Positions 10,868-62,764 are shown, counted from the stretch's first letter. The stretch: DNA of 64,000 nucleotides from Craspedostauros australis (GCA_030167865.1 JALAGF010000347.1:1-64000); one strand, 5' to 3'. Notes: a model not told the origin generated them from the sequence alone. Made by a program: numbers and translations.

Positions 10868-13279
10868 TTAGAGCAAGTCGGCAACATCCATCGGCATCTC
10901 GGTAATCTCAGTGTTGTAGAACTGTTCGATATCGCGAAGGTAACGAACATCCCCCTCAGTCAAAAAGTTGATGGCCACACCCTTACGTCCGAAACGTCCG
11001 GAACGGCCGATACGGTGGATGTAGTTCTCGCGGTTGGTTGGCAGGTCGAAGTTGATGACCAGAGACACCTGCTGGACATCGATACCACGGGCGAGAAGAT
11101 CGGTGGTGATCAGGACACGGGAGGATCCGGTACGGAACTCGCGCATGATGATGTCACGCTCTCTCTGCTCCATCTCTCCGTGCATGCAGGAGACGGTGAA
11201 GTCCTTCTTTATCATCTCCTCCTGGAGCCAGTCGACCTTGCGTCTGGTGTTGCAGTAGATGATGGCCTGGGTGATGGTCAAGGTCTCGTACAGATCGCAG
11301 AGGGTGGCGAGCTTCCACTCCTCCTTCTCGATGGCAATGTAGAACTGCTTGATACCCTCGAGAGTGAGCTCGTCCTTCTTGACAAGGATGCGGACTGGAG
11401 TGCGCATGAACTTCTGGGTCACCTCAAGCACATCGAGTGGCATGGTGGCGGAGAAGAGGCAGACCTGGACCGTTTCTGGGAGGAACTTGAAGATGTCATA
11501 GATTTGGTCCTTGAAACCGCGGGAAAGCATCTCATCGGCCTCATCGAGGAAGAACTGACGGATGTTGTCGAGGCGGAGGGCACGACGGTTGATCATGTCG
11601 GAGACACGTCCTGGGGTTCCAACCACGACGTGGACACCTCCCTGGAGGGTGCGGATGTCGTCACGCACGGCGGTACCTCCGACGCAGGCATGGACCTTGA
11701 TGTTCATGTAGTCGCCGAGGGCAAGGACGACCTTCTGAATCTGCTGGGCCAACTCACGGGTTGGGGCCAGGATCAGGGATTGGCACTGCTGGACCTTCGG
11801 GTCGAGCTTTCCGAGAGTACCGATCGCGAAGGTCGCGGTTTTTCCCTGTTAGTTTTGTGTGTGTGTGTGGAGGAGGAGGTGAGAAGACGAGATGAATGCG
11901 TTGTTGATTGCACAATTGTATTGCGTATTCCGCATGGTGGCATAGATAAGTTCGATGTGAGGTATTGAGTGAGAGCATGGTGGTTGTGCAAGGTATGTGC
12001 AGCTGTTCACGACCAGGCCACAGACATATATCGTTGCTGGTGCTGCTGTTGTGGTGTCATTGCGGTCAGACTTCGAGTTTGGATTTTTCAGACACGTCGA
12101 GGGTGACTCTTTTCAGACTCGAAAGATGGTTAACAAATAAATCTTCATCCCTTTCGTTGCTGCTGTCATGCTGGCATCGCGCAGGGAAAGATCGGCTGCT
12201 GCTTTCAATGCGTGTCCACATCTTCCAACCTGTGTGGCGGGAGGTGTGAATTGTGATTCGTGCTGTGGGCTTTCGTCTCCCCGTCACAAGCCACAGATCA
12301 ACCTGCCACGATGCTGCCTTCTCGGTAGTCGGTTTTGGCAACGCTTGCTGCGTACGGAGGCCTCCATGTTGATTGGGAGCCGCAGAAGCCTCACAATCGA
12401 CGACATCCTGGGCGCGAGCAACAGCGGCGCCGATGACAACGACAGCGGCAGCAGCAACAACAACGACATCAGCGCAATTCATACAACGCGTACATGCTGA
12501 AGGATCATGACAACAAGGAACTCACGGTACCGGATTGGGCCTGGGCGATGAGATCGTGTCCCATAATCGTTGGGCGCACGGCTCTCTGCTGGATGGCAGA
12601 TGGCTTCTCGAAACCGTAGGAGTAGATTCCGCGGAGGAGCTCCTCTGGCAACTCCATGGCATCGAAGGTCTCGATGGCCTCGTCCCAGTTGGTGTCGAGA
12701 TCGGCATCACTGATGCCGCCCGGCGGGGCCTCTCCCTCTGGGAGAGGTTCCTCCTCGCGAGGAGGTTCTTCACTGTGGGTGGATGTGCGTCACGAGGCGG
12801 AGCGACGAGAATGGGAAGCCGGTGACACGATGGACGCAAAGCAGGGAAATAGCAGGATTGCGGCAGATGTGAGCGGATGTGAGTGGCCTGAAGGAATGTG
12901 TGCAAATAGATCTGGAGCACTCGTCGGGATGTGGTAACATGACGCCATGCGCTATTGCATGAATCAGCTATCTTGAGTAACTACCCATCGACGATGTTGC
13001 TGCTTGGCTGGGACCACGATCCCTGTGCATCCGCATGTGCGACAGCAGAAGGCGACCGCGGCGGCTTCGCCATCTCGCATTTCTCCCCTGCATCGCGAAA
13101 AATCACCTCGCATGACGGTTGTTTGCGGTGGCAACACCACTGCAGCGCGGCCGTATTGTCAAGCATCTTCATTGAGGGTGTTCACAGTATCGCAGAGTGT
13201 ATCATGGCGCGCCGCAGCGACGACGATCCGCAACGGAGCATCAGGGCAGCACATACCTTGTTGGCTGTTCGTCACTCAT
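10868..13279 (-). CDS. EIF4A: Eukaryotic translation initiation factor 4A (DEAD-box helicase); exons 13279-13257, 12772-12526, 11845-10868
   Basis: Q motif [37 protein letters not shown] and [10 protein letters not shown]. Both introns are GT-AG and phase-compatible. Confidence 0.96.
12063..12151 (-). ncRNA. Candidate intronic box C/D snoRNA (snR39B/SNORD2-like)
   Basis: Lies in eIF4A intron 2 on the host strand: gg-ATGAAGA (C-like box) ... ACCATCTTTCGAGT-CTGA (guide plus D') ... CTGA-cc (D). The guide is complementary to the conserved LSU rRNA segment GACCCGAAAGAUGGUGAAC. Confidence 0.6.
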
Positions 13280-50065: not shown

Positions 50066-51355
50066 CTAGGCGAGGGTCTCCTCAGCGAACTTGGAGAAGG
50101 CCTCGACGGTGCGGACCTCGCTCTCGTACTTGACGACGGATCCGTCTGGCTTGATGACGTTGACGGTTGGGAAGGATTCGGTGTTGAGGTTGGCCTGGAC
50201 GAATTCACGCTCTTCGTCTCCGCGGAAGCTGTAGACATCGAGGTCGGAGTCGGCGGCGAACTTCTCGAACTCCTCCTCCATGTTCTGGGAGAACTGGCAC
50301 CATGGGGCGTAGACGACCATGACGGCTGGCTTGCCGGCCTTGACGGCCTCATCAGCGGCGCCGGTGGTCTCGATCTTCTTGACGGCGGACTTGTCGGTCT
50401 CCCAGAGGTCGCGGTCCCAGGTGCGCTCGGCTCCGGCAACGTGGATGCCGCACTCGGTCTTGGTGGATCCGTCCTTGTTGGCGAGTCCGACGAAGCGTCC
50501 CTTTCTCTCGCTGGCGTAGTCCAACCACTGGGTCTTGTCACCTTCGAAGGAGAAGTCGGCGAACTTGACGCTGCCGTCTTCCGGGATCGGGATGGTGTCC
50601 TTGGCATCACCGATGCTTGGGTATCCCTTGGCGTGGAGTGGGTGGTGCGGGATCTCGTACTTCTTGATGTAGTCGAAGGTATCCTCGAGGGTCCAGTACG
50701 CGAGCGGGTTGCACTTGGCGAGTCCACCTCCGATTGGGGCGTTCTCGAACATGTCAATCCAGGCACGCTCGAATCCCTGCCACCGGGTGCGTCCGTTGAT
50801 CATGCAGTCGGTGTTGAGGGTCTTGAGTCCGCGCTGGAATGGCTCAACCTTGCAGACGCGGTCGTACTCCTCGATGTTCTCCTTCCAGAGGTCGGCTCCG
50901 TAGCGCTTGTCGTAGGCTGCCTTGTCGGCGATCGGGATGCCCTCGGCACAGAAGACCTCGGCCTTGAAGTTGTAGAACTCCTCGATCTCCTTGAGGAAGT
51001 CCATGGTCTCTGGGAAGAGGTGGAAGGTGTCGACGACCATGATCTTGGCCTTGCCGCTCTCGAGGAAGCCGAGGCGGTGGAGAAGGTGGGTGATGACGAC
51101 GTCACCGGCGATCATGGCGTTGGGGAAGACTGCGTTCTCGTAGTTCTCGCAGGAGATCTTGAGGGCGTACATGGCCTGCTCCTCGAGGTGCTTGAGGCGC
51201 ATATCCTTGGTCTCCTGGATGAACTGCTCCTGGTCGAAGCTGTCGGCCATGTTCATGGTGGTGGTGGGGGTCGTGGAGAAGGCTGGCTTGGTTGGGACGA
51301 AGGCGGCGGCGAATGGGGCGGCGCACAACGCGGTGAAGGCGATGATGTGCTTCAT
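50066..51355 (-). CDS. APR: Plastid adenosine-5'-phosphosulfate reductase, APR-B-like, with a C-terminal thioredoxin-like domain
   Basis: Presequence AAAFVP; VDTFHLFPET, KVEPF, GYPSIGD and ERKGRF..KTECGIH; Trx-like YAPWCQFS...SFPT. Confidence 0.93.
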   Translation of the reverse strand: MKHIIAFTALCAAPFAAAFVPTKPAFSTTPTTTMNMADSFDQEQFIQETKDMRLKHLEEQAMYALKISCENYENAVFPNAMIAGDVVITHLLHRLGFLESGKAKIMVVDTFHLFPETMDFLKEIEEFYNFKAEVFCAEGIPIADKAAYDKRYGADLWKENIEEYDRVCKVEPFQRGLKTLNTDCMINGRTRWQGFERAWIDMFENAPIGGGLAKCNPLAYWTLEDTFDYIKKYEIPHHPLHAKGYPSIGDAKDTIPIPEDGSVKFADFSFEGDKTQWLDYASERKGRFVGLANKDGSTKTECGIHVAGAERTWDRDLWETDKSAVKKIETTGAADEAVKAGKPAVMVVYAPWCQFSQNMEEEFEKFAADSDLDVYSFRGDEEREFVQANLNTESFPTVNVIKPDGSVVKYESEVRTVEAFSKFAEETLA

Positions 51356-52089
51356 GATGTTGGTTGTATTTGTGTTGTGTTGTGTCGTGTCGTTTGTCGT
51401 TAGACTTGGACCTGAGTTGATTTTATGTCGATGTTGGCTGAAGCAAAGATTCTTTGTTTGGGAGTGTTTCGGATTTGCGTTGTGTGCTCTTTGGGTGTTG
51501 CACTTTCCTTTTTGCGTTTTGCGGCTGCGAGTACGTTTTGGGTTTGGCGCAATGGTTTTGTGAGGTGCGTGCACCTGTGTCTCTCTGTCTTTTGGTTGGA
51601 ACAAGAAGGATTCGATTCGGAGGATGCTGACGGTCGAGGCACAGAAAAACAAACGTGGGACGCAGGGTTCGGAGGTTCCCGGAGATTTGACACCACCGAT
51701 CGTGTGTTGGTCTGTCGAGTCCAATCCCATTCAACCACGATACAAGGAGCAACTGTGGGTATCCACGCTGCGTGTGCGGTGGCATTGCTGTGACGTTTGT
51801 TTTCTGTGGCTGGGAGGCGCCGACACCAAAGATACTTCGAGTTGACGAACGAGAGGTCTCAAGATACAGAGTTCGTACCGTTGTGTCCGATTGTCGTGTT
51901 TCTTGCGTGTGGGTTGGCGGACAGGCGATACTGCGCTAGTTGACGCTACAATATTGAATCTAGAGAGTAGCGCTCACTTGATTTGCTTGCAGAACATATG
52001 CACTGTACGACTCTGCCTCGACCCGCGTACCACACTTTGGTTCTACCGCATCGTGTCTGCACTCGTGCACTCGTTTACCTCAACTCTCC

Positions 52090-55000
52090 TCATGGCTGCT
52101 GATGGCAAATCGCATGAGCTCTGGTCGGTGGCATTGATGGGATGGCATCAGCCTCGGCCAATAGTCCGTTGCGACAGCAAAACAAGTTGTCTGCGTCGAG
52201 AGTCTCTTTCAGACCCTTCATGACGCTGAGCATCGTGGGCGATGAGCGCTCCTTCAACAAGGACGATCGCAGCTTGCCGATGCCATGATGGTGACTCAGC
52301 GAGCCGCCGTGCTCCAGAATGGCCGCCTTCGCGGCATGCTCGAGATCCGAGTAAGTGTCGCTCGGTTTTGGAACGCCTTCGATGCTGATGCAAAGGTAGA
52401 AGTAGATGCACGCCCCTTCGTGGTAGAGCTGGGTGATGCGGCATCCGACGAATGGAGTGCCTGGCAGGTTCCGCGCAAAATGCTCTTTCGTGATGCGATC
52501 GTGCGTGCTGCTGATCACGGTCTCGATCTTGGACCACGGGACGAAGGTCTCGAAGGACTCGCCCAGCAAATCGTAGTTCATGGCGAAGTCCCGTAGGTAC
52601 GCGATCATGAACGTGAGCTCGTATCCCGACTGTCCAACCCTGGATCCCAGAGAGATCCCGCCATGCTGCGTTGCCAGTCTGGCGATCTCGCGCTGTTGGC
52701 TTGCGACCTCTGCGGCTCTGCCTTCGTAGGATATGGTCGCGCAGACGACGGAGTGCGGGTGAAACGTTCCGTTACCAACCACGGAGGTCAGGGCGAACTT
52801 CATGAATGACTCAACTGCGCTGGTCACCATGCCGTCCGAGTCGGGGCGCAGGGCCTGACCCAGGCGGAAGTGAGCGTTGTCCATCAATCGGATGCTGGCG
52901 GGTGCCAGAGCACCGAGCTTGGACACGTCATGGACGAAGCTCAAGCCAGTGCCGAATGACGGCAGCAAGATGCTGTCGAACTTCTTCACCTCTGGCAATG
53001 GCCAAACGCGGATGATCGCTCTGGTGATCACTCCCAAACAACCTTCTGAACCCAAGATCAATGACAGCATATCCAATCCTTCTGACATGCGCCCTGGCAC
53101 CGTTCTCGAATGGCACCGTGCCGACTCAACGAGCTCGCCCCCCTCCTGCTGGGTGGAAGTCACAAAGGTCACAGACTTCACGATGTCCTCGATGTTGCCG
53201 TACTTGGATCGTTTCATCCCGCTGGCCTTGGTCGCGATCCAACCGCCGAGCGTGCTGAATTCGTAGCTGTCTGGTTCATGCCCGATGGTGAAGCCACGGC
53301 TGGCCATCTCTTCGACGAGCTCCTTGCCCGTGATGCCAGCCTGAACCTGCGCAAGCCCGTCCTCCTCGTTGAGCCAGAGCACCTTGTTCAGCAGCTTCGT
53401 ATCCAATGCGATAATCGAGCGTGGCTCCTGTTCGTACGTCGGACATCGTGTTGCCGATGTAACGTTCGTTCCACCACCGACTGGGATGATGCACCACCCT
53501 CGTTGTGTCGCCAGCTGGATCAATCGCGACATCTGCTCTTCGGATGAAGGCCGGGCCACGACGTCAGGAATACGATGCAACGTACCGTATCGGAGAGCGT
53601 ACACATCATTCTGAGAATGGCCGCTGCACTGCCTTGCGCGATCCCACGGGTCCGTGGACACATCACCCACGACCTTTCGTATCTCATCAAGGTCTGATTG
53701 GCCGAGTTTGCAGTTGGTGTTGGTGTCGCTGTCGTATAGGGAGGGATCGAATGAGCATGCGGCTGGTTCGGTCATGAGGTTGATCTTCACACCCATTTCA
53801 TTCTCGATAAACGGCAGCAACTTGCGAATGCGCTTGTTACAAAGCCTGTACCGTGCCCCCTTCATGGTCACGTACGGTCTCCCCTTGCTGTCCGATGCAA
53901 CGATGAATCCAGAATCACCAAAGCCCCAATACCCCAGCTTTTCAGCGCCGTTGGTGTCGTTGATGCCGTGCTTCGCATATCGCACCAAGTTATCGCTGGG
54001 CGCTGATGTCGATGATGCCATCAGTGCACTGATGGTGTGAATCCCACTATACTGCAAGGCTTGCAATGCCTGCAATGCTTTACATGCAGCAGCATACACC
54101 AACATGCGCGGGAGAGATGCATCCTGCCTCAACGCGATCTGCATGACATGCTCCGCCGTCGTTTTGCTTGTCATCCCAGATTGTTGCAATTTTTCAACTG
54201 CGGTCTTCGCTGCCTGGTCTGCACCATCAAACAACTCGATGAAGCCTTTCAAGAGGGCATTCGCACACGCATTCGTGGTCGCGCTCGGGTTCATAGATTG
54301 TGACTTCTCCGTCAGTTGAGGACTCGTCAACTTGAATCTGCTCCGCACCAGATCAGTGTGGAACGCAAGCCACGATGACCACCGGGGCCTCGAAGCTGCC
54401 AATGAACTGGCCAGGATGTGCGAGAATTGAAATGCCACGGCACACAGCTCGCTACGATCTGTTGGGATGCCTGGAGGTCTTGGCATGCCATCTTCGCTCG
54501 GCGTCCCTTGATCGGAGCAGCAGCAGCAGCATGGTGGCTTGAAGTTGCACCTGAGCTCAACCATACCATTTTGGACTGTGTTCGAATCTAGTTGCAACAG
54601 GCGGGAGATAGCCTCCACATGGTAGTCTGTCACAAACGTTTGCTGTTGCTGTCCAAGCTGGATGTCTTTCGCAAGCGCCTTGTAGCAGCATGCGGCAGGA
54701 TCATGTCCGTTGGGCATGCGAATGGGCTGATCGGCAGCGATATGAATCTTCCCAAGCTGCACGAATCCCTTGCCAACTTGCTGGTTGCGCCAGTAGGTTG
54801 TTATACAACAGTGTGCGTTCCAACGTTTGGGGAATAGGGAGAGGCGATTTGGTAACGGACGGTCAAGAGAAAGGGAGTCGCGATTAGACACACTGTTGAA
54901 TTGCGTGTCGATAGGTACTCGCACATCGGAGCAAATGGTAGAATTGGACACACAGTGGAGAGCACTGTTTGTGTCCGGCGCTTATTGGGATGTTCAGCAC

Positions 55001-58000
55001 ACACAGCACATTCCAATCCGCAGGCACATTAACCCACGGCACACAAAAAGCACGGATCGGACCAAGCCAAACCAGACCAAACAGACCCACACGCAGCAAG
55101 GAAGGCAAGGCAAGGCCAAACGCTGTGCTTCGACCATAGAGTACAGTGTCCGCTCACTCACCATCAGCCATGCCAAGAGACCAGAGAGGCTCAGGTGGTT
55201 GCGATTCGCGCCGCCTGCTTCGGGCACCAGCAGACTCTGTTCTGGAATGACTTCGTAGTTGATGGAAATGGGGACCACGATATGACTACCACCCGATTGC
55301 TGAAGATGCTTGAGAAATCCTGTCTTGGGCTCGAGATATCGTCGATCGCGGCTTCGCTTGCCCTCGATGAACACCTCAAAGCATGGCACCGATTGCTGAC
55401 TGGCGTCTTCCTTCATACTCCTCAGCTGGCTCGTGAGAGCAGGGTCTTCAGTTTTCCTTCCTCGTTTCACGTACAATGCACCCATGCAGCGTGCGAGGAA
55501 TCCAACGATAGGCATGCGTTCAAAGTCAGTGGCTGCTGCGATCATGGGCAGTTCGATCCCCATCTCCGGAAGTGAGAAGATGGCGTAGCTCAGCAGCATA
55601 AAATCGAAAAATGAACGATGCGTCGGAGCAAGGACGATCGTCGTCATCTGGCCATGATCCTCGGACGTCGCTTGTTGAACGGCTTGGAGGAAGAATTCCA
55701 TGTCGAAACTCACTTCCGCGCAAGTCCTTCTTAGTATGTGCGAGAAAAAGTAGCCAGTGAGCCGGAAGACGATGTTCCCTTTCGGCTGCGACATAGCCCA
55801 ACCGAAGTCGCTCAGGCATCGCGCGTGCCGTCGGCCACCGATCATCACTTCCATCCTTCCAGATGATGATTTGCAGTCTGTTCCCTTCTGACCAGCAGCA
55901 GCATGAGCATGAGCAGCAGCATCATTGTGCACTTCAGCGGATTTGCTTTGCGCCAACGAAGCTTGTCGCTTGGTGGCCATGTTGCGATTGAAGGCATGCG
56001 CGGCTTGCACGCAACGTGTCATGTACCTATCACCCTCAACAGTTGTCGGCGCAACCAGCTTGGAACGGAAGTGGTATGTTTTGTTCATGAATGGGAAGAA
56101 CAGAAGGGGCAAGTCGAGGTATCCCACCAACATGTTCAACGCCGGATTCTGCATGTCCAGGTAACGAAGCGCCGCCTGAACGAGATACATCGGTTTCATC
56201 ACCAGCCATGCATGAAGCGTCGCGAATGTCTCCCATCCCATCCCAACTCCCGGGAACAGCTTGGTTGCGAAGAGAAGTCCGATGAAGGCGACTGGTCGGC
56301 TGAAGTGATCGTAGATGGCTCCAATTTGACAAGTCGCGAGACTGTAGTCGGTCCACGTGAAGTGTGTGGACGGAGGAGAGCATGCGTCCCATGTCACATT
56401 GTGAATGGAGTGCCGTGGCACATCCTTGCAGGCAGAGGCATTTGGTTTTGATAGAGTCTTGGACCTGTCGATACGAAATGCTTCGTGACTGTCCCCGGAG
56501 GAATGGAAGCTGCTGATACCTGTCAGGTTCTCGGCGGGTCGGATCTTGACAAGATCGGAATCCTCGCTATCCACCTCGTCCGAGGAGGCCAAGGAGTCCT
56601 CTTGCGCAGCATCGGGAGACTGGACGGTGCTTCCGGCTGGACATTGGAAGGCCTTTTGCAGCACGCAGCGAGCCACCACGTCCACGGGGATGTATGGAAC
56701 TCTGTGACTTCCAAAGCACCACAGATTCCACTGGTAGAATAGATACAGGCTGGACGCAGCAACGATGGTTGATGGTTTTTGTCCGGCCCAACCTTCGGAA
56801 GGATTCTCAAGGGCAGGACCGACGATGCTGGGCCGCAGGATGATGGTCTGGACGGACGGATCGGCACGGCTCAATAGCAGACGTTCACAAATGCATTTGC
56901 TGAACGTGTACGTGTTCGGAAATTCCAAATCGTGCATTGCTTGTTGGGCGAACAGCTGGTTCCCAAGCATGGATCGGTAGATCTTCGCAGCAGCGTCGTT
57001 GTACAATCCGCCAAGATCGAACAATCCCTCGCCTAGGGGTCGTTCCGAACTCCCCGTCTGTCCGCCATGCACGAAGGCTGTGCTGATCTGAATGAATTTG
57101 ACGGATGGGTTTGACAGCCGGCCGGCAAAGTCCTGCATAATCAACGGCGCAGTTATGTTGGATTCCGCAGCTTCATCCAGGCTTTGCTTGAAGCTGACAG
57201 AGGCAGCGCAATGAATCACGACGTCGATGCTGTCATCTTGCTGGAGTTGCTGCAATGCACGTCCGTCGCAGATACCTGCATTGGATTTCGTTATGTCACC
57301 TTCCACAACTCGCACTAATGTTTCCTTCTCCGTGCTGGAGAGAAAGCCGAACATATCCTGGGATGCCAAGAGCTGCTGGATTCGTTGCTGCGCAGTCTTT
57401 TGCCGTCTTGGACGGCACAGCACGAGGATCTGTTCGATTCCAAAGCGTTTGCGATGCTTCAGCAAGTCACGCAGGATCATGGACCCCACAAATCCCGTTG
57501 CGCCCGTCAAAAATACTTTGCGTCGGCATGTTGCTGCATCTTGTGAGAGCACCGCATCCTGATTATCCGCAAATAGGGAATCGATGATGGGGTCGTCTTG
57601 ATTCTCATTATTCTCGCTGTCGTCCTTCGGCGCCGAAACCAAATGCTTCATGAACGGTCCGCTGCGTCCAAAGTAAAATGTGGACGCGGCTGACCTCAGC
57701 AGCATCAATCCTGCAATGTACAACGCGTACACCGCCATTGTCACTCGAATTGCGAGCCAACACGTTGACAGCACCAACGCTGCCACCGGCATGCAGCCCA
57801 TTGAACGCGCCATGATGGCAACTGCAATGATTGGGACGACTGTCCAAGTCGAAAAGAGTTTGATGCGGGTGCTTGCATTGCGCGAAGATGTAGGCATGAT
57901 GGGACGTCGTAGACAATCCGCCATGTGTTGCATCTGTTGTGAATTCAACTCCTGGCTGGCAATGGGAAGATACACGATATGATCCATCAAGTAATCTGTA

Positions 58001-60132
58001 TTCACTGTTGTTGTTGTCGTCGTCGTCGTCGTCGTCGTCGTCGCTGTGAGGTTGGAGTGCTGCTGATGTGGACAATTGTTGGGTTGCGATGCTTTTGGCA
58101 TCATCATTTTCGAGACGGAGCAGAGCTGTGATGCACCAGAAGTCACATCGTATCCTGCGTGCCGCATTCGCATGCTGACTTGTTGCGGTTGGTCAACACA
58201 GATTGGGAACAGCCAGTAGGTATGCGAGATGGTTTGGTGCTGCTTGAGATTGCCGTTTCGAACAATGACATTGCCGTCATCGTTGAGGCTCTTCATGTTG
58301 GATTGTTGAAGTAGCTGGGTCATGTGTTGACAACGCTGGATTCTGGTATGGACGCTACGCAGAACCCCTTCTCGCTGTGCTTGCTGCAGTCGACGCCGGA
58401 GCAACAGGAGCTGAGCCAGGCACGGCTGTTTCCGAACATGCTTCGTGAAGTGCTGTGCATCGTCCGTTCGAAAATTCCGAATACTGGATGTGATTAGGAC
58501 GTCGACATCAATTCGCACGGCGTTGCATACATGTACCAATATTCCGAACAGAGACGGTGATGATGCGATGACCGTCACCAGGGCCGATTTCACGACTTTT
58601 GCGAAATACTCCGTCGTGGATTGCCGCTGATAAAAGGACGATTGTAGTCGGTCCATGGAAACTGCGTCCGCTTGATTCTTGACAACGGCAATGCCTCCAC
58701 CGATGGCCGTGGCAGTTTTGATCGTGCCGAAGGAAAAGAAGCAGGCGTCTGCGAATGCATGGCCGCGGTAGATGCAATCGTTTTGATCAGAACTCTGCCA
58801 TCGAGTTTGATACGGACTCATGCCCGTGAAGCATTCGGCACAATCCTCGAGGAGATCGAGTTGACGCCCATCGGCAAGCTTGCGTAGTTGTCGCCAATCC
58901 GATTCGGTGGTGGAGATCATGCCAAACGGATGTACGATGATGATTGCGACTGTTTTGGACGTGATAGCCGCTTGCACAGCCGCCACATCGACGCGGACCT
59001 TTGTTCTGTGTGGAATGTCGATGGGGACGCATCGTAGCTGATGGTACTGGATGACCTTCATCATTCCTGGGACAGTGATGGGAGGCACGATGATGATCTC
59101 TGCATCCTGCGTATATTGCTTGGACATGAGGTAGAGATCGAGCAGGGATCGAACGGAGAGGCCCGAAATGACATGCCGAGTTTCGTTCATGTTCTGTTGC
59201 CAGATGCGTTGGATGGATGCTGTTATCTGCTTGGATTGTGACCGAACTGGGTTGTGGATGAAATTGAAGTACGACCGGATGCAGTGCCAAACAACGAAGA
59301 CGAGATCGATGGTTCGAATGTCAATGCGCCCACGAGGCAGGATGGGTTTGATCCCGAGGCGGTCCATAACCCATTGACTGATCCATGACATCATCGCCGT
59401 TGCTGCTGTTGCTGCTGTTGTTGGTAATGTTGCTGATGCTGCTTCTGTTTGAACTGGCAACTGCAGTGGAAAGGGAGGCTGAGTTCGATTCTGACTTTGG
59501 CCTTGTAGATGTTGAGGTTGCGCTCGTGCTGTTGGTCGGAGCGTGGCGGAATGAGTTGCAGGTCTTGAGCTGGCATCGTCCTGCTGCTGTGGTTGCTGTT
59601 GTTGATCACAATCATCGTCATTGTCATCGTCATCTTCAAATTCGCCGTCGTTGTTGGTGTCGTCAATGTCATCGCTGTTGATGGACTGCAGATAGGATTG
59701 GAACAAGCGTCGGCAATGATTGCCTGTTCGGTTATTCTTCGTCGCCACGAGCTTGATGTAATTGATCATCGCCTCCTCTGCGAGTTGCGTGCTGCAAGAT
59801 AGCCATTCCTTGTACTTTGCTCTGGCCACGACGTTGAACACAGAGGGCATGCTGTCATTGGGACACGGGCCGTCCTTGACGAGCTTGTAGAGAGCGTACA
59901 ACCGAAGCTTTTCATCCGTTGTAACATCGTCGCCTTCGATGGAGGACGGTGGAGCGTTGCGCACCTGCGACACCACCTCATCGAATAAGGCTTGCAGCCG
60001 GTTGATCGTCGCTTTGCTCCTCCTGTTCATCAAGCCATCATCGTGCTGACCAATACGGGTGCCAGCATCGTTGCCCGTGTCATTTACTGGTGATTTGCCA
60101 TCGTCGAGATCTGCGGATTCATTGAACGACAT
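52090..60132 (-). CDS. Giant multifunctional ether-lipid synthase: ACBP - DegT-type PLP enzyme - TM - fatty acyl-CoA reductase - DHAP acyltransferase - alkyl-DHAP synthase; exons 60132-55162 and 54780-52090 (about 2550 aa)
   Basis: ACBP: KLRLYALYK..ARAKYKEW..AMINYI. DegT: VHPFG, LLEDCAE, FSFGTIKTATAIGGG. FAR: LTGATGFVG, HCAASVSF, NTYTFSK, RPSIVG. Acyltransferase: PTHRSFFD, FIEGKRSR. AGPS: WGFGDS, RIPDVV, PVGGGTNV, GHEPDSYEFSTLGGW, GSEGCLGVIT, HHHGIGK. Phase-0 intron GTGAGT(55161)...ACCAG(54781). Confidence 0.85.
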
Positions 60133-62299
60133 TGCGAGAGCTGCGCCCAATCGTCGTCACGCAAGGCAAGAGCAGAGAAGAGCACGAGCGATCTCCTGAT
60201 GTATGGTAAACAGTCGCACGTAAATGAGGGTTGATGGACGTCGTCGTACAGGTTTCACGTCGAGTAGTTGTATGTGTGGTATGGTATTGTATTAGTATCG
60301 TATGGAATGTATGCTTGTTGGTTGGCACCACGCCTGCGGATGAGGCCGGTGTTGTTGTCAGCGTACTCGTATAGTAGGTAGCAAGAAGAAGTCTCTCTTT
60401 CTGCTGTTCTTGCTCTTGCTCTTGCTCTTACTCTTGCCCGCGACCATGATCGCAGTCGAGAGGGGAACCAACCACGATGACGACGATGACGAAGACGGTG
60501 ATGGCGGCAACGTTGTCTTGTTGGTGTCACTTTCCGCGATGGTTGGTGCCCACGAAGGAAAATCCAAAATCGTGGACTGACACCGGATGAAAAATGTGCA
60601 CCCATCACAAAGCGTGTGTCAAACACATGCCCACGACTCGCTTGCCACCACCAATCAATTCCTTCGCCATCTCCTCTCAGTCGTGCTTGCTCGATAGAAA
60701 AAACCATCTAATCGGCTGAATCGAAGAACTTGCCCATCGCAAGTTCAACGCTTCCGGCTCTTTCGGAGAAATTTGTATCGATTATTCAAGCGTTAATATT
60801 GAATACGGTATTGCATGTGTATCACATGGTTGCTGTTTCCCGAAAAGTGAAGTGTTGTTCTGACGTCAATCGTTTTGGCACCACGTATGCATGAGCATCC
60901 AATCAGAATTCAGTATTTGTCCATCGCACAATCTGCGATGCTGGCGATGTGTGCGCGGCGTACGTGTCGGCAAGAGCTCCACTTTTTGGCCTCGACACTC
61001 CTTCGCCAGTTCGCCGCCACGGCCAGATCGTCATCGTGTTTTTGCGTCGCTGATGCGATCAGACGCTGCGACACGCACGCACAAGCACATGCGTGATTTT
61101 GCTGGGTGGGTGGCAATCTTCCGAGACACTGAGAGAGATGATGACCTCGTCAACTGCTTCCGCAGGCACCCTTGCTTTCCCAGTCGTCAATTTCAACCAA
61201 CCCAACCAAGGCCAAACACACAGACGCAGACGCAGAACAACCAGGCAGAACAAGTACCAACAAACACGCCTTTCTCACTGCGTGACATCCACGCATACAC
61301 GTCCATGGTATGGAAGAGTGCACACATCACGATTAATCCACGTATTGCCAGCATTAACGGCGCTATTAGTACGTCCCACCACCGCGAGACAGCGTTGCAA
61401 TTGCTCTGCTCCACTTTCCTTTCCTCCGTAAAGCAATACCAATACTCCGCCCTCAAGTGCGACACCAACTCAACCAGAGGCGACGATTCACCACAACCAC
61501 CAAACCAAACCAAACCTCTCAGACAAAGACAAAGACAAAGGACAAACAGCACTACCACAACCTCAAGGCAACACCAACAAAACGACTGCGTCGCCTTCTT
61601 TCCATCACACGCATCCTCCGATCGGATAGATTCTCACAGCGCTCACAAAATCAAAACAACCGCACAATTGCACACCAACACGCCAACACGAGTTCCTCAC
61701 AACATTCTCACAACTCCATTCTCCCATCCATCATCTCAGAAGGCACACAAAAAACGAAAGAAGAAGACACAACAACGGCTCGAACTCGCGCTCCATCACA
61801 TCAGTTTTCCGATCAGGTGAGTTCTGACAACGTCGGCGTTCCTTGCGTGAAAGAAAAACATCAACTTCATTTTCCTTGCGAAGCCATCGAGAAGTGCCGT
61901 CATTGTGACGATTCCGTCTTGTGTTCCTACGTCATTCCGTCTCCGCACACGCAATCATCCATCAGACATGCCCCAGAAAACTCACACGAACATCAACCAT
62001 TCACTGCCCTGCTTGCACGCCCACTTCCATCTCTGCTCGCATGGCGCGTTGCCGACCGCCACCGCGATTCATTGCGTGATTGCATTGGCCCGCCATCGCC
62101 TCGCATCATCGCAAAAAAACATGCGACGTCTTTCCATGCCTCCACACCATCACAAACACACAACAACGCACCCTGACACGGATGAACAACGACCAACGAC
62201 CAACCCTTTACGCCACATCACACGGATACTCCAAACGAAACAAAGATACCAACCATACACACCAAACCCTCAGCCAAATTCAATCCAATCTAATTCGCA

Positions 62300-62764
62300 A
62301 TGATCTCCAGACAGAACATCCTCGCTTTGCTCTTCCTCTGCCTCTCCGTCTTCGCCTCTACAACAACGGCGCTCGTGGCACCATCTCCAATCCGCAGAAC
62401 GGCAGCAGCAACCTCGACCACCCTCGCCGCCACAGCACTCCAACGTCCTGCCGCAAGCACCGTCCTGGAACGATCGCAGCAGAAGCAGCGCCGCAATGAT
62501 TCCAACGAACAGCGCGTCGGCGGTGATGCCTGGGAGGTCCGAATTTACAACGATGGATTGAACACGAGGGAATACGTGGCGCGATCCCTGGTCAAGGTCG
62601 TCGGCATTTCCGAGCTCACCGCCTACCAGACCATGATGCAGGCGCACAAGAATGGTATCGCCGCCGTCGGACGATGGGCCTTCGAGGTTGCCGAACTGTA
62701 TCACGATGGTCTGCAAAAGAATGGCATCGTTTCCGATCTCGTTCCAGTCGACGAAAGCTCGTGA
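62300..62764 (+). CDS. clpS: Plastid-targeted ClpS-like adaptor protein
   Basis: Signal peptide plus transit-like region; WEVRIYNDGLNTREYVARSLVKV...AYQTMMQAHKNGIA...AELY. Confidence 0.88.
   Translation: MISRQNILALLFLCLSVFASTTTALVAPSPIRRTAAATSTTLAATALQRPAASTVLERSQQKQRRNDSNEQRVGGDAWEVRIYNDGLNTREYVARSLVKVVGISELTAYQTMMQAHKNGIAAVGRWAFEVAELYHDGLQKNGIVSDLVPVDESS

Follow-up and report, generated by a model that had tools for sequence, protein, structure and literature searches.

The closest described counterparts of the gene reported here are the FARAT proteins, in which a fatty acyl-CoA reductase (FAR) lies N-terminal to an acyltransferase: the FAR–GNPAT fusion of Tetrahymena thermophila and MXAN_1675 of Myxococcus xanthus, which together with AGPS supply the three catalytic domains of the canonical first steps of ether-lipid synthesis (PMC13012113). 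A 2026 survey of eukaryotic plasmalogen genes describes a patchy distribution of AGPS, GNPAT and FAR across the stramenopile–alveolate–Rhizaria (SAR) lineages, and the words 'diatom', 'aminotransferase' and 'DegT' have no occurrence in its available text, supplements aside (PMC13012113). In a stretch of 64,000 nucleotides from the diatom Craspedostauros australis (GCA_030167865.1 JALAGF010000347.1:1-64000; hereafter the window), we find a minus-strand gene that encodes the same three catalytic domains, again with the reductase N-terminal to the acyltransferase, and that differs from FARAT in carrying AGPS on the same polypeptide and in adding, at its N terminus, an acyl-CoA-binding (ACBP) domain and a DegT-type pyridoxal 5'-phosphate (PLP) domain. 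The order along the protein is ACBP, DegT-like PLP domain, FAR, dihydroxyacetone phosphate (DHAP) acyltransferase, AGPS. A DegT-family enzyme has been recruited into the FAR–GNPAT–AGPS ether-lipid module, and the feature is real and conserved; in the literature searched, no ether-lipid enzyme is described as having a PLP or DegT domain.

The DegT-like domain spans residues 268–745 (57916..59349, minus strand), as delimited by Pfam family PF01041 and by conservation across the stretch. The Pfam match itself takes in residues 324–519 (58594–59181; E = 8.5e-19; 68.4 bits, the family cut-off being 19.8) and model positions 39–215 of 360, the remaining fold still being conserved among orthologues. 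A first-pass annotation of this DNA had placed intact aspartate and lysine motifs of a PLP enzyme between ACBP and FAR, at 57950–59345; translation of 58717–58848 (minus strand) and the order of Pfam domains both agree with it, and its span falls within the conserved domain. The EDCAE motif (58834..58848, minus strand) holds Asp436, the predicted partner of the PLP pyridine nitrogen, and SFGTIK (58717..58734, minus strand) holds Lys478 (codon 58717–58719), the predicted Schiff-base lysine. In phmmer alignments, EDCAE pairs with EDAAQ or EDCAQ of solved DegT enzymes and FSFGTIK with FSFYPAK of QdtB (3frk), 7n63 being matched at both motifs too, and a profile of the subfamily described below puts the same aspartate and lysine motifs onto 7n63, perosamine synthetase 3bn1 and ArnB; the aligned lysine and aspartate of these solved enzymes we take to be their catalytic residues. 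That profile aligns to the solved enzymes in two stretches, 6–203 (strong) and 278–400 (weak, the C-terminal domain), and conservation spans the whole domain in alignments of 55 and 138 rows. To judge from these motifs and alignments, the domain is very probably a catalytic PLP enzyme.

Retention of the domain among relatives is nearly complete. Fifty-four proteins of similar total length match it, all of them multi-domain and all listing PF01041 together with a reductase; the named taxa among them are the diatoms Nitzschia, Fistulifera and Seminavis. With the reductase–acyltransferase part as query, 191 proteins were recovered at E ≤ 1e-10, and of the 120 matches listed, 109 are labelled PF01041; the named taxa are diatoms throughout, with both pennate and centric species represented. 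A hidden Markov model (HMM) built from the fused domains and run over 137 fused homologues found the DegT domain in 136. Eleven proteins are without the PF01041 label: four hold a complete domain that precomputed annotation had overlooked, six are gene models that start inside the domain, and one (P0338) gave no match. Transcriptome-derived orthologues keep the domain as well, two by their PF01041 label (P0012 and P0369) and one by our own HMM (P0325), and these, with the HMM count, dispose of the concern in the first-pass annotation that orthologues might lack the domain or splice it out. We separately considered a bacterial contaminant or a spliced-out segment as the source of the domain and ruled both out, since it lies in frame within an intronless open reading frame (ORF) of 1,718 residues and is kept in the transcriptome-derived orthologues.

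In a 138-row hmmalign alignment, in which counts take only the rows covering a given column, the two predicted PLP-contacting residues and S473 do not vary (K478 in 132/132, D436 in 131/131 and S473 in 131/131), and the same holds or nearly holds for R334 (126/127), R573 (135/135), W646 (136/136) and Y727 (137/137), with further invariant positions in both halves of the fold. The near-invariance of K478, D436, S473 and R334 indicates that the DegT catalytic apparatus is under purifying selection.

Stand-alone proteins of about 400 residues also resemble the domain over its full length (81 matches, best E = 3.5e-64); Pythium and Lagenidium, which are oomycetes, and a Planctomycetaceae bacterium are among the sources. 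In full-length BLASTP, the window domain matches its stand-alone relatives at E values of 5e-40 to 2e-56. A profile (A1) made from the window domain and 62 stand-alone proteins, searched against 1.84 billion representative proteins, returned 44,701 at E ≤ 1e-3 and 1,802 clusters (50% identity) at E ≤ 1e-30, the top 150 matches aligning end to end at 456–566 bits. The subfamily so delineated carries the motifs CLSVRSGFDLLL / EDCAQAF / FSFGTIKTATALGG, and at its SGT motif the canonical G-T is replaced by V-R (reading SVR). We found no solved or curated member of it; the NCBIfam sugar-aminotransferase equivalogs score at best 42 bits against a cut-off of 650 (cut-offs 375–650), and in the ESM Atlas an oomycete homologue falls into generic DegT clusters only. 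By these profile and motif comparisons, the domain belongs to a distinct, large and uncharacterised DegT subfamily.

The fused and stand-alone forms appear to share one active site. At 34 positions the two groups carry one and the same residue with at least 90% conservation, arginine in five cases (R273, R334, R573, R587 and R603), and just two positions are conserved yet different, which argues for the same head-group recognition in both forms; a functional shift on fusion, which we had considered, is rejected on the same count of two. Since the active site is that of the stand-alone relatives, function should be reasonably transferable from the bacterial members. In a quick maximum-likelihood tree (115 rows, midpoint-rooted, without bootstrap), the fused eukaryotic domains form one clade within the subfamily (20 rows; Shimodaira–Hasegawa-like approximate likelihood ratio test, SH-aLRT, 100), and the oomycete proteins, together with a DegT–ACBP fusion (P0076), form a separate clade among bacterial sequences (SH-aLRT 99).

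The domain shares its Pfam family, fold-type I motifs and aligned lysine and aspartate with the DegT sugar aminotransferases, which are its best solved relatives (QdtB 3frk, perosamine synthetase 3bn1, ArnB 1mdo and 7n63). It might on this basis be a canonical sugar aminotransferase acting on a nucleotide- or lipid-linked keto-sugar, for example in making a glycolipid head group later put on the ether lipid. Against this, subfamily members score at least 450 bits to profile A1, whereas the solved DegT enzymes reach 115 bits at most, with good alignment over the first half alone and the substrate-binding segment past the lysine unaligned; the replacement of G-T by V-R is a further departure, and the diatom protein has neither a sugar-activating nor a glycosyltransferase domain. 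Genomic context bears on the same question. We scanned one genome per prokaryote species, in which 597 stretches matched and 494 encode a relative, and used the best 80 loci; on these, 1,082 ORFs were called and all were searched with seed sequences, and annotation of two neighbours per side in 69 loci (248 ORFs) and of 29 ORFs of selected operons gave 277 neighbour ORFs. A DprE1-like oxidase, found in 9 of the 80 loci and in 10 of 30 loci of one planctomycete order, could form a keto-sugar on a lipid carrier, and flippase and GT4 genes adjoin one planctomycete clade. The 277 neighbours nevertheless include no member of the nucleoside-diphosphate-sugar dehydratase/epimerase families PF01370 and PF16363, so that the subfamily differs from the sugar aminotransferases in context as well, and a glycan gene of any kind lies within two genes in 6 of the 69 loci. 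Sugar transamination thus strikes us as very improbable.

What the bacterial loci do contain, in 16 of the 80, is a lipid or glycerol-phosphate-type partner, adjacent to the DegT gene or fused with it. These partners are the VAO-type FAD oxidase just mentioned (nine loci; fused in L041 and L072), a DAO/DAO_C flavoenzyme (four loci: L023, L063, L075 and L076), a PF01553 acyltransferase (four loci: L022, L057, L063 and L076) and PlsY (one locus, L045). NCBIfam identifies the acyltransferases as PlsC-like, and the best match of the DAO partners is the glycerol-3-phosphate dehydrogenase NF008899, at 256–271 bits in L063, L023 and L075. Two operons bring both kinds of partner together, with the gene order EEP-phosphatase, PF01553 acyltransferase, DegT and DAO/DAO_C in L063, and TRAP transporter, acyltransferase, DAO and DegT in L076. 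The same couplings recur as fusions, in which DegT is joined to a PF01553 acyltransferase, in both orders (P0134, P0160 and P0210), to DAO/DAO_C (P0198), to FAD_binding_4, with or without ALO (P0087, P0218, P0281, L041 and L072), to PlsX (P0090), to an LpxO/OlsC-type hydroxylase (P0285), to ACBP in the reverse order (P0076) and to a short-chain dehydrogenase/reductase (SDR) domain.

Sampling within lineages gives a similar picture. In the class of genome G002, the gene occurs in 19 of 104 genomes, and in 17 of the 19 a GlpD-like gene lies directly downstream, 53–100% identical to the L023 copy. In the planctomycete order of G005 it occurs in 33 of 201 genomes, and the 10 DprE1-like oxidases counted among the 30 loci fetched there lie directly upstream of it; in the Thioglobus order (G1188) it occurs in 3 of 122 genomes, all three close kin with small genomes (1.3–1.8 Mb; L162–L164), and in 3/3 plsY overlaps its 3' end by a few bases (plsY at 11190–11816 in L045). 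In three other groups sampled the gene is rare, being found in 1 of 201 genomes in the class of G001, 4 of 301 in the order of G003 and 1 of 201 in the order of G004. In Rubrobacteraceae, the DegT and GlpD-like pair is followed by a DUF4153 membrane protein (L023, 16120–17595; L075, 2801–3439), which may act in the same pathway.

These partners suggest a chemistry for the domain. The bacterial flavoenzymes would oxidise the secondary alcohol of a glycerol-phosphate-like or polyol-phosphate skeleton to a ketone, and the other partners would acylate glycerol phosphate; a transaminase set between ketone-forming and acylating partners would yield a 2-amino-2-deoxy (serinol-phosphate) skeleton. The diatom protein would need no oxidase, because DHAP, acyl-DHAP and alkyl-DHAP already bear the ketone. 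We accordingly favour, at a likelihood a little short of even, the reading in which the domain transaminates a glycerone-phosphate (DHAP) skeleton at its C2 carbonyl rather than a nucleotide sugar. That the substrate is specifically 1-O-alkyl-DHAP, the likeliest form of that skeleton here, is a narrower and more doubtful proposal, which would run as follows: the ACBP domain captures acyl-CoA, the reductase domain makes fatty alcohol, the acyltransferase domain makes 1-acyl-DHAP, and AGPS swaps the acyl for the alkyl chain to give 1-O-alkyl-DHAP, whose C2 ketone would then undergo transamination by the DegT domain, with glutamate or glutamine as the probable donor, in place of the usual NADPH-dependent reduction. 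The product would be 1-O-alkyl-2-amino-2-deoxyglycerol-3-phosphate, or O-alkyl-serinol phosphate, which could be N-acylated to a ceramide-like ether lipid. The AGPS mechanism requires the C2 ketone; for all five domains to be used in line, the order must therefore be acyltransferase, AGPS, DegT. What we infer here is which class of substrate is used, that the step follows AGPS, which amino donor serves and what becomes of the product. The first-pass annotation had likewise remarked that no alkyl-DHAP reductase domain is present, and within the protein the Pfam scan agrees, giving no SDR domain suited to that role; nor do the annotated ORFs adjoining the gene include a short-chain dehydrogenase fit for it.

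That annotation had offered two substrates, the sn-2 ketone of alkyl-DHAP and a fatty aldehyde released by FAR. Of these, the ketone at C2 of the DHAP skeleton is indirectly supported by the couplings and fusions with GlpD-like, PlsC-type, PlsX and PlsY partners, and the aldehyde fares poorly. A DegT domain working on the aldehyde would yield a long-chain alkylamine, and placing reductase and aminotransferase on one polypeptide makes sense for such a step: reductase-plus-transaminase logic occurs in polyketide and non-ribosomal pathways, alkylamine-containing lipids occur in Deinococcus and Thermus, and ACBP is fused beside DegT in two independent orders. No NAD_binding_4 domain, however, occurs in the 277 neighbour ORFs, the window reductase as query finds no relative among the 1,082 ORFs of the 80 loci, and a subfamily fusion with a reductase was not seen outside the diatom protein. 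In the same 80 loci, single-sequence phmmer searches with the window ACBP, FAR and DHAPAT domains gave no match, and the AGPS domain matched three FAD oxidases weakly; the neighbourhood comparison proposed in the first-pass annotation, of homologues with FAR, AGPS or acyltransferase genes, thus turned up acyltransferases (in the four loci above) and no FAR. AGPS, moreover, uses fatty alcohol, not an amine, and the five subfamily-invariant arginines would be a better fit for an anionic head group than for a simple aliphatic aldehyde. Taken together, the aldehyde is an improbable substrate.

Several observations weigh against transamination of a lipid-linked DHAP skeleton. Most of the bacterial loci (64 of 80) have no lipid or glycerol-phosphate-type partner. 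Where there are partners, the GlpD-like ones lie under the equivalog cut-off of 360 bits (256–271 bits for three, 136 for L076), the VAO ones are only remotely like DprE1 and sugar-lactone oxidases, and the pairs with GlpD alone suit free DHAP better than a lipid ketone. Other surroundings point elsewhere: three betaproteobacterial loci (L011, L055 and L060) have the arrangement TauD, GST, DegT, thiamine pyrophosphate (TPP) enzyme and TctC, and gammaproteobacterial members (L006, L008 and L058) lie directly behind a gene for a fused OpuAC-binding protein and permease, contexts that look catabolic, as if for taking up and degrading a small amino alcohol or sulfonate, and not for making lipids. 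The planctomycete clade with the flippase and GT4 glycosyltransferase genes (L016, L027, L031 and L040) adjoins them divergently, and single loci have a GT2 (L007) or a Bac_transf (L039) neighbour. On the diatom side, the polypeptide of about half the database orthologues does not include AGPS, although truncation of gene models may account for this; an alkyl-DHAP reductase gene may lie separately, elsewhere in the genome; and a serinol-backbone ether lipid in diatoms was not found in the literature searched. Finally, CuyC, the one characterised DegT enzyme acting on a C3 amino alcohol, is a racemase and not a transaminase (PMC12814064).

CuyC introduces a further possibility, that the domain performs non-transaminase PLP chemistry on a C3 amino alcohol, for example as a CuyC-like racemase or epimerase, or on serinol phosphate or the cysteinolate-type metabolites that diatoms accumulate; its fusion to ether-lipid enzymes would then be for regulation or supply and not for one shared pathway. 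The Bilophila sp. 4_1_30 protein (G1V6E7) is a PF01041 member encoded in a catabolic cluster with HpsN, CuyA and CuyB; it racemises D-cysteinolate, a C3 2-amino alcohol with an anionic group and the sulfonate analogue of serinol phosphate (PMC12814064). Cysteinolic acid is described as a widespread solute of marine microalgae (PMC8703288), and the betaproteobacterial context with TauD and a TPP enzyme resembles sulfonate metabolism. Yet CuyC orthologues are called common in marine Alphaproteobacteria (PMC12814064), whereas among 401 Pseudomonadota genomes, in a search centred on G003, G003 alone holds a subfamily-level match (at least 400 bits); an HpsN-type neighbour (PF00815) is likewise absent from the 277 neighbour ORFs. 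The oxidase partners would make ketones, which are substrates of transaminases and not of racemases, and the domain keeps its fusion to four lipid domains across diatoms. Racemase-like chemistry is, in our estimate, unlikely, and we retain transamination of the DHAP skeleton as the favoured reading.

Matches of 150–177 bits in the Pseudomonadota sample were considered as CuyC-like members and rejected, as they constitute a different, sister group situated in CHASE2-cyclase/radical-SAM and not cuy clusters. Proteins of this sister group score about 108–177 bits to profile A1, those annotated matching it full-length, and in 6/6 annotated loci they adjoin or are fused to radical SAM (L154, L155, L156, L158, L159 and L160). 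The usual order is CHASE2 adenylate cyclase, DegT-like protein, radical SAM, methyltransferase and B12-radical SAM; L155 is a fusion of DegT, radical SAM and SPASM.

The diatom gene as a whole occupies 52090..60132 on the minus strand, its spliced product being about 2,553 residues long when counted from the first ATG. ORF calling on the window gives the minus-strand ORF of 1,718 residues (54994..60150), followed in the same frame by one of 953 residues (52090..54951). In tblastn with three full-length orthologues, both ORFs lie in one frame and about five residues are missing over some 390 nt, and in the DNA a 381-nt intron (54781–55161; donor GTGAGT at 55161, acceptor CAG at 54781) keeps the frame yet contains an in-frame TGA. 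The two ORFs are therefore one gene with one intron: the orthologue alignment spans both, splice signals are present and the in-frame TGA lies between them. Exon 1 is at 55162–60132, its probable ATG, a predicted start, being residue 7 of the ORF; exon 2 is at 52090–54780, stop included. In tblastn of the orthologues, the DegT region is free of introns.

All three ether-lipid initiating enzymes (FAR, GNPAT/DHAPAT and AGPS) are represented both by Pfam domains and by motifs. Around the DegT-like domain, again on the minus strand, lie the ACBP domain (residues 54–135, 59746..59991; PF00887, E = 8.9e-17), the NAD_binding_4 fatty acyl-CoA reductase (residues 881–1162, 56665..57510; PF07993, E = 1.4e-42), the GNPAT/DHAPAT-type acyltransferase (residues 1503–1630, 55261..55644; PF01553, E = 3.4e-15) and, in exon 2, the AGPS domains FAD_binding_4 and FAD-oxidase_C (52180..53568; PF01565, 1.2e-33, and PF02913, 3.6e-28). 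The translation reads GATGFVG (GxxGxxG) and YTFSK (YxxxK) in the reductase and HRSFFD (HX4D) in the acyltransferase. Identity to diatom orthologues, some of them annotated at source as AGPS, is 36–45%, and 44% for the AGPS part (tblastn). Between DegT and reductase, a hydrophobic stretch (residues 763–818, 57697..57864, minus strand; Kyte–Doolittle windows above 1.7) probably forms two or three membrane-spanning helices, by which the protein would be inserted into a membrane. An acidic, Gln- and Ala-rich low-complexity linker that is not conserved in orthologues separates ACBP from DegT (about 59370–59670, minus strand), and within the DegT region the translation contains an unconserved segment (58006..58041, minus strand), a column block gapped in most orthologues.

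Many database orthologues, of 1,400–1,650 residues, end ahead of AGPS and several start inside the DegT domain; a good share of the public gene models for the fused family is probably truncated, at an intron with an in-frame stop. Database labels on the fused proteins are automatic and call them AGPS or sugar transaminase fusions. By eye, no SKL-type tripeptide for targeting of this 'peroxisomal' pathway was recognised in the window protein or in 60 listed orthologue C termini (proteins above 2,100 residues); most such C termini lie just past a conserved ...FGARNG(L/P)F... motif. Flanking the gene in the window are an ORF with a PAPS/APS-reductase domain and a C-terminal thioredoxin domain (50066–51730, minus strand) and one for a ClpS-like adaptor (62300–62764, plus strand).

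To our knowledge, the ether-lipid metabolism of diatoms, which are among the main primary producers of the ocean, has barely been described. We put forward, tentatively and as a possibility below that of the general chemistry, that diatoms and, separately, many bacteria make unrecognised serinol-phosphate lipids. In diatoms, one membrane-bound polypeptide would convert acyl-CoA and DHAP to 1-O-alkyl-serinol phosphate, the backbone of ceramide-like 'oxa-sphingolipids', and the DegT subfamily, with at least 1,802 clusters, would be the signature enzyme. The product might then represent a new lipid class, and one in a globally important algal group. If this is correct, lipidomics has missed an entire class of nitrogen-containing ether lipids, which would be isobaric with other species or misassigned as them, with consequences for membrane biology and for biomarkers; such lipids would also be structural mimics of sphingolipids. 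The analysis also delimits a large DegT subfamily, labelled in databases as sugar aminotransferases, whose partners (G3P-dehydrogenase-like, PlsC-like, PlsX and PlsY) point to lipid or glycerol-phosphate chemistry, offering a testable entry into bacterial serinol-type aminolipids.

Described enzymes offer the nearest parallels to the proposed reaction, and they bear on a variant already contained in the DHAP-skeleton reading: that the domain converts free DHAP to free serinol phosphate, to be used as a head group or acylated, in parallel with alkyl-DHAP synthesis. Cj1437 of the Campylobacter jejuni capsule transaminates DHAP to serinol phosphate (PMC11800397), and the N-domain of RtxA, from the rhizobitoxine pathway of Bradyrhizobium elkanii, performs the same conversion (PMC3222319). 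Their likeness to the present domain is one of proposed reaction type, and they feed polysaccharide decoration and a toxin, respectively, not a lipid. Such precedents, the DegT and GlpD-like pairs without an acyltransferase (the 17 of 19 above), which fit a route from G3P through DHAP to serinol phosphate, and the common active site of fused and stand-alone forms all speak for free DHAP; on the other hand, this domain and the acyltransferase domain, on one protein, would then be rivals for DHAP, the C2 ketone of alkyl-DHAP would be left without a dedicated enzyme, and the ACBP–DegT fusions in two orders suggest a lipid-linked role. We consider this variant, though a serious one, rather unlikely. 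A last parallel comes from Gemella haemolysans, in which a single gene, nas, is reportedly a joining of an aminotransferase domain to an N-acyl synthase (ascribed to Cohen et al. 2017), its acyltransferase being, we presume, of family PF13444 and not PF01553. Expressed in E. coli, nas gives N-acyl serinol (PMC13012048), a further precedent for acylation of a serinol skeleton. What it makes is a secreted amide and no ether lipid; its logic would be the same as that of the DegT–acyltransferase fusions of the subfamily described here.

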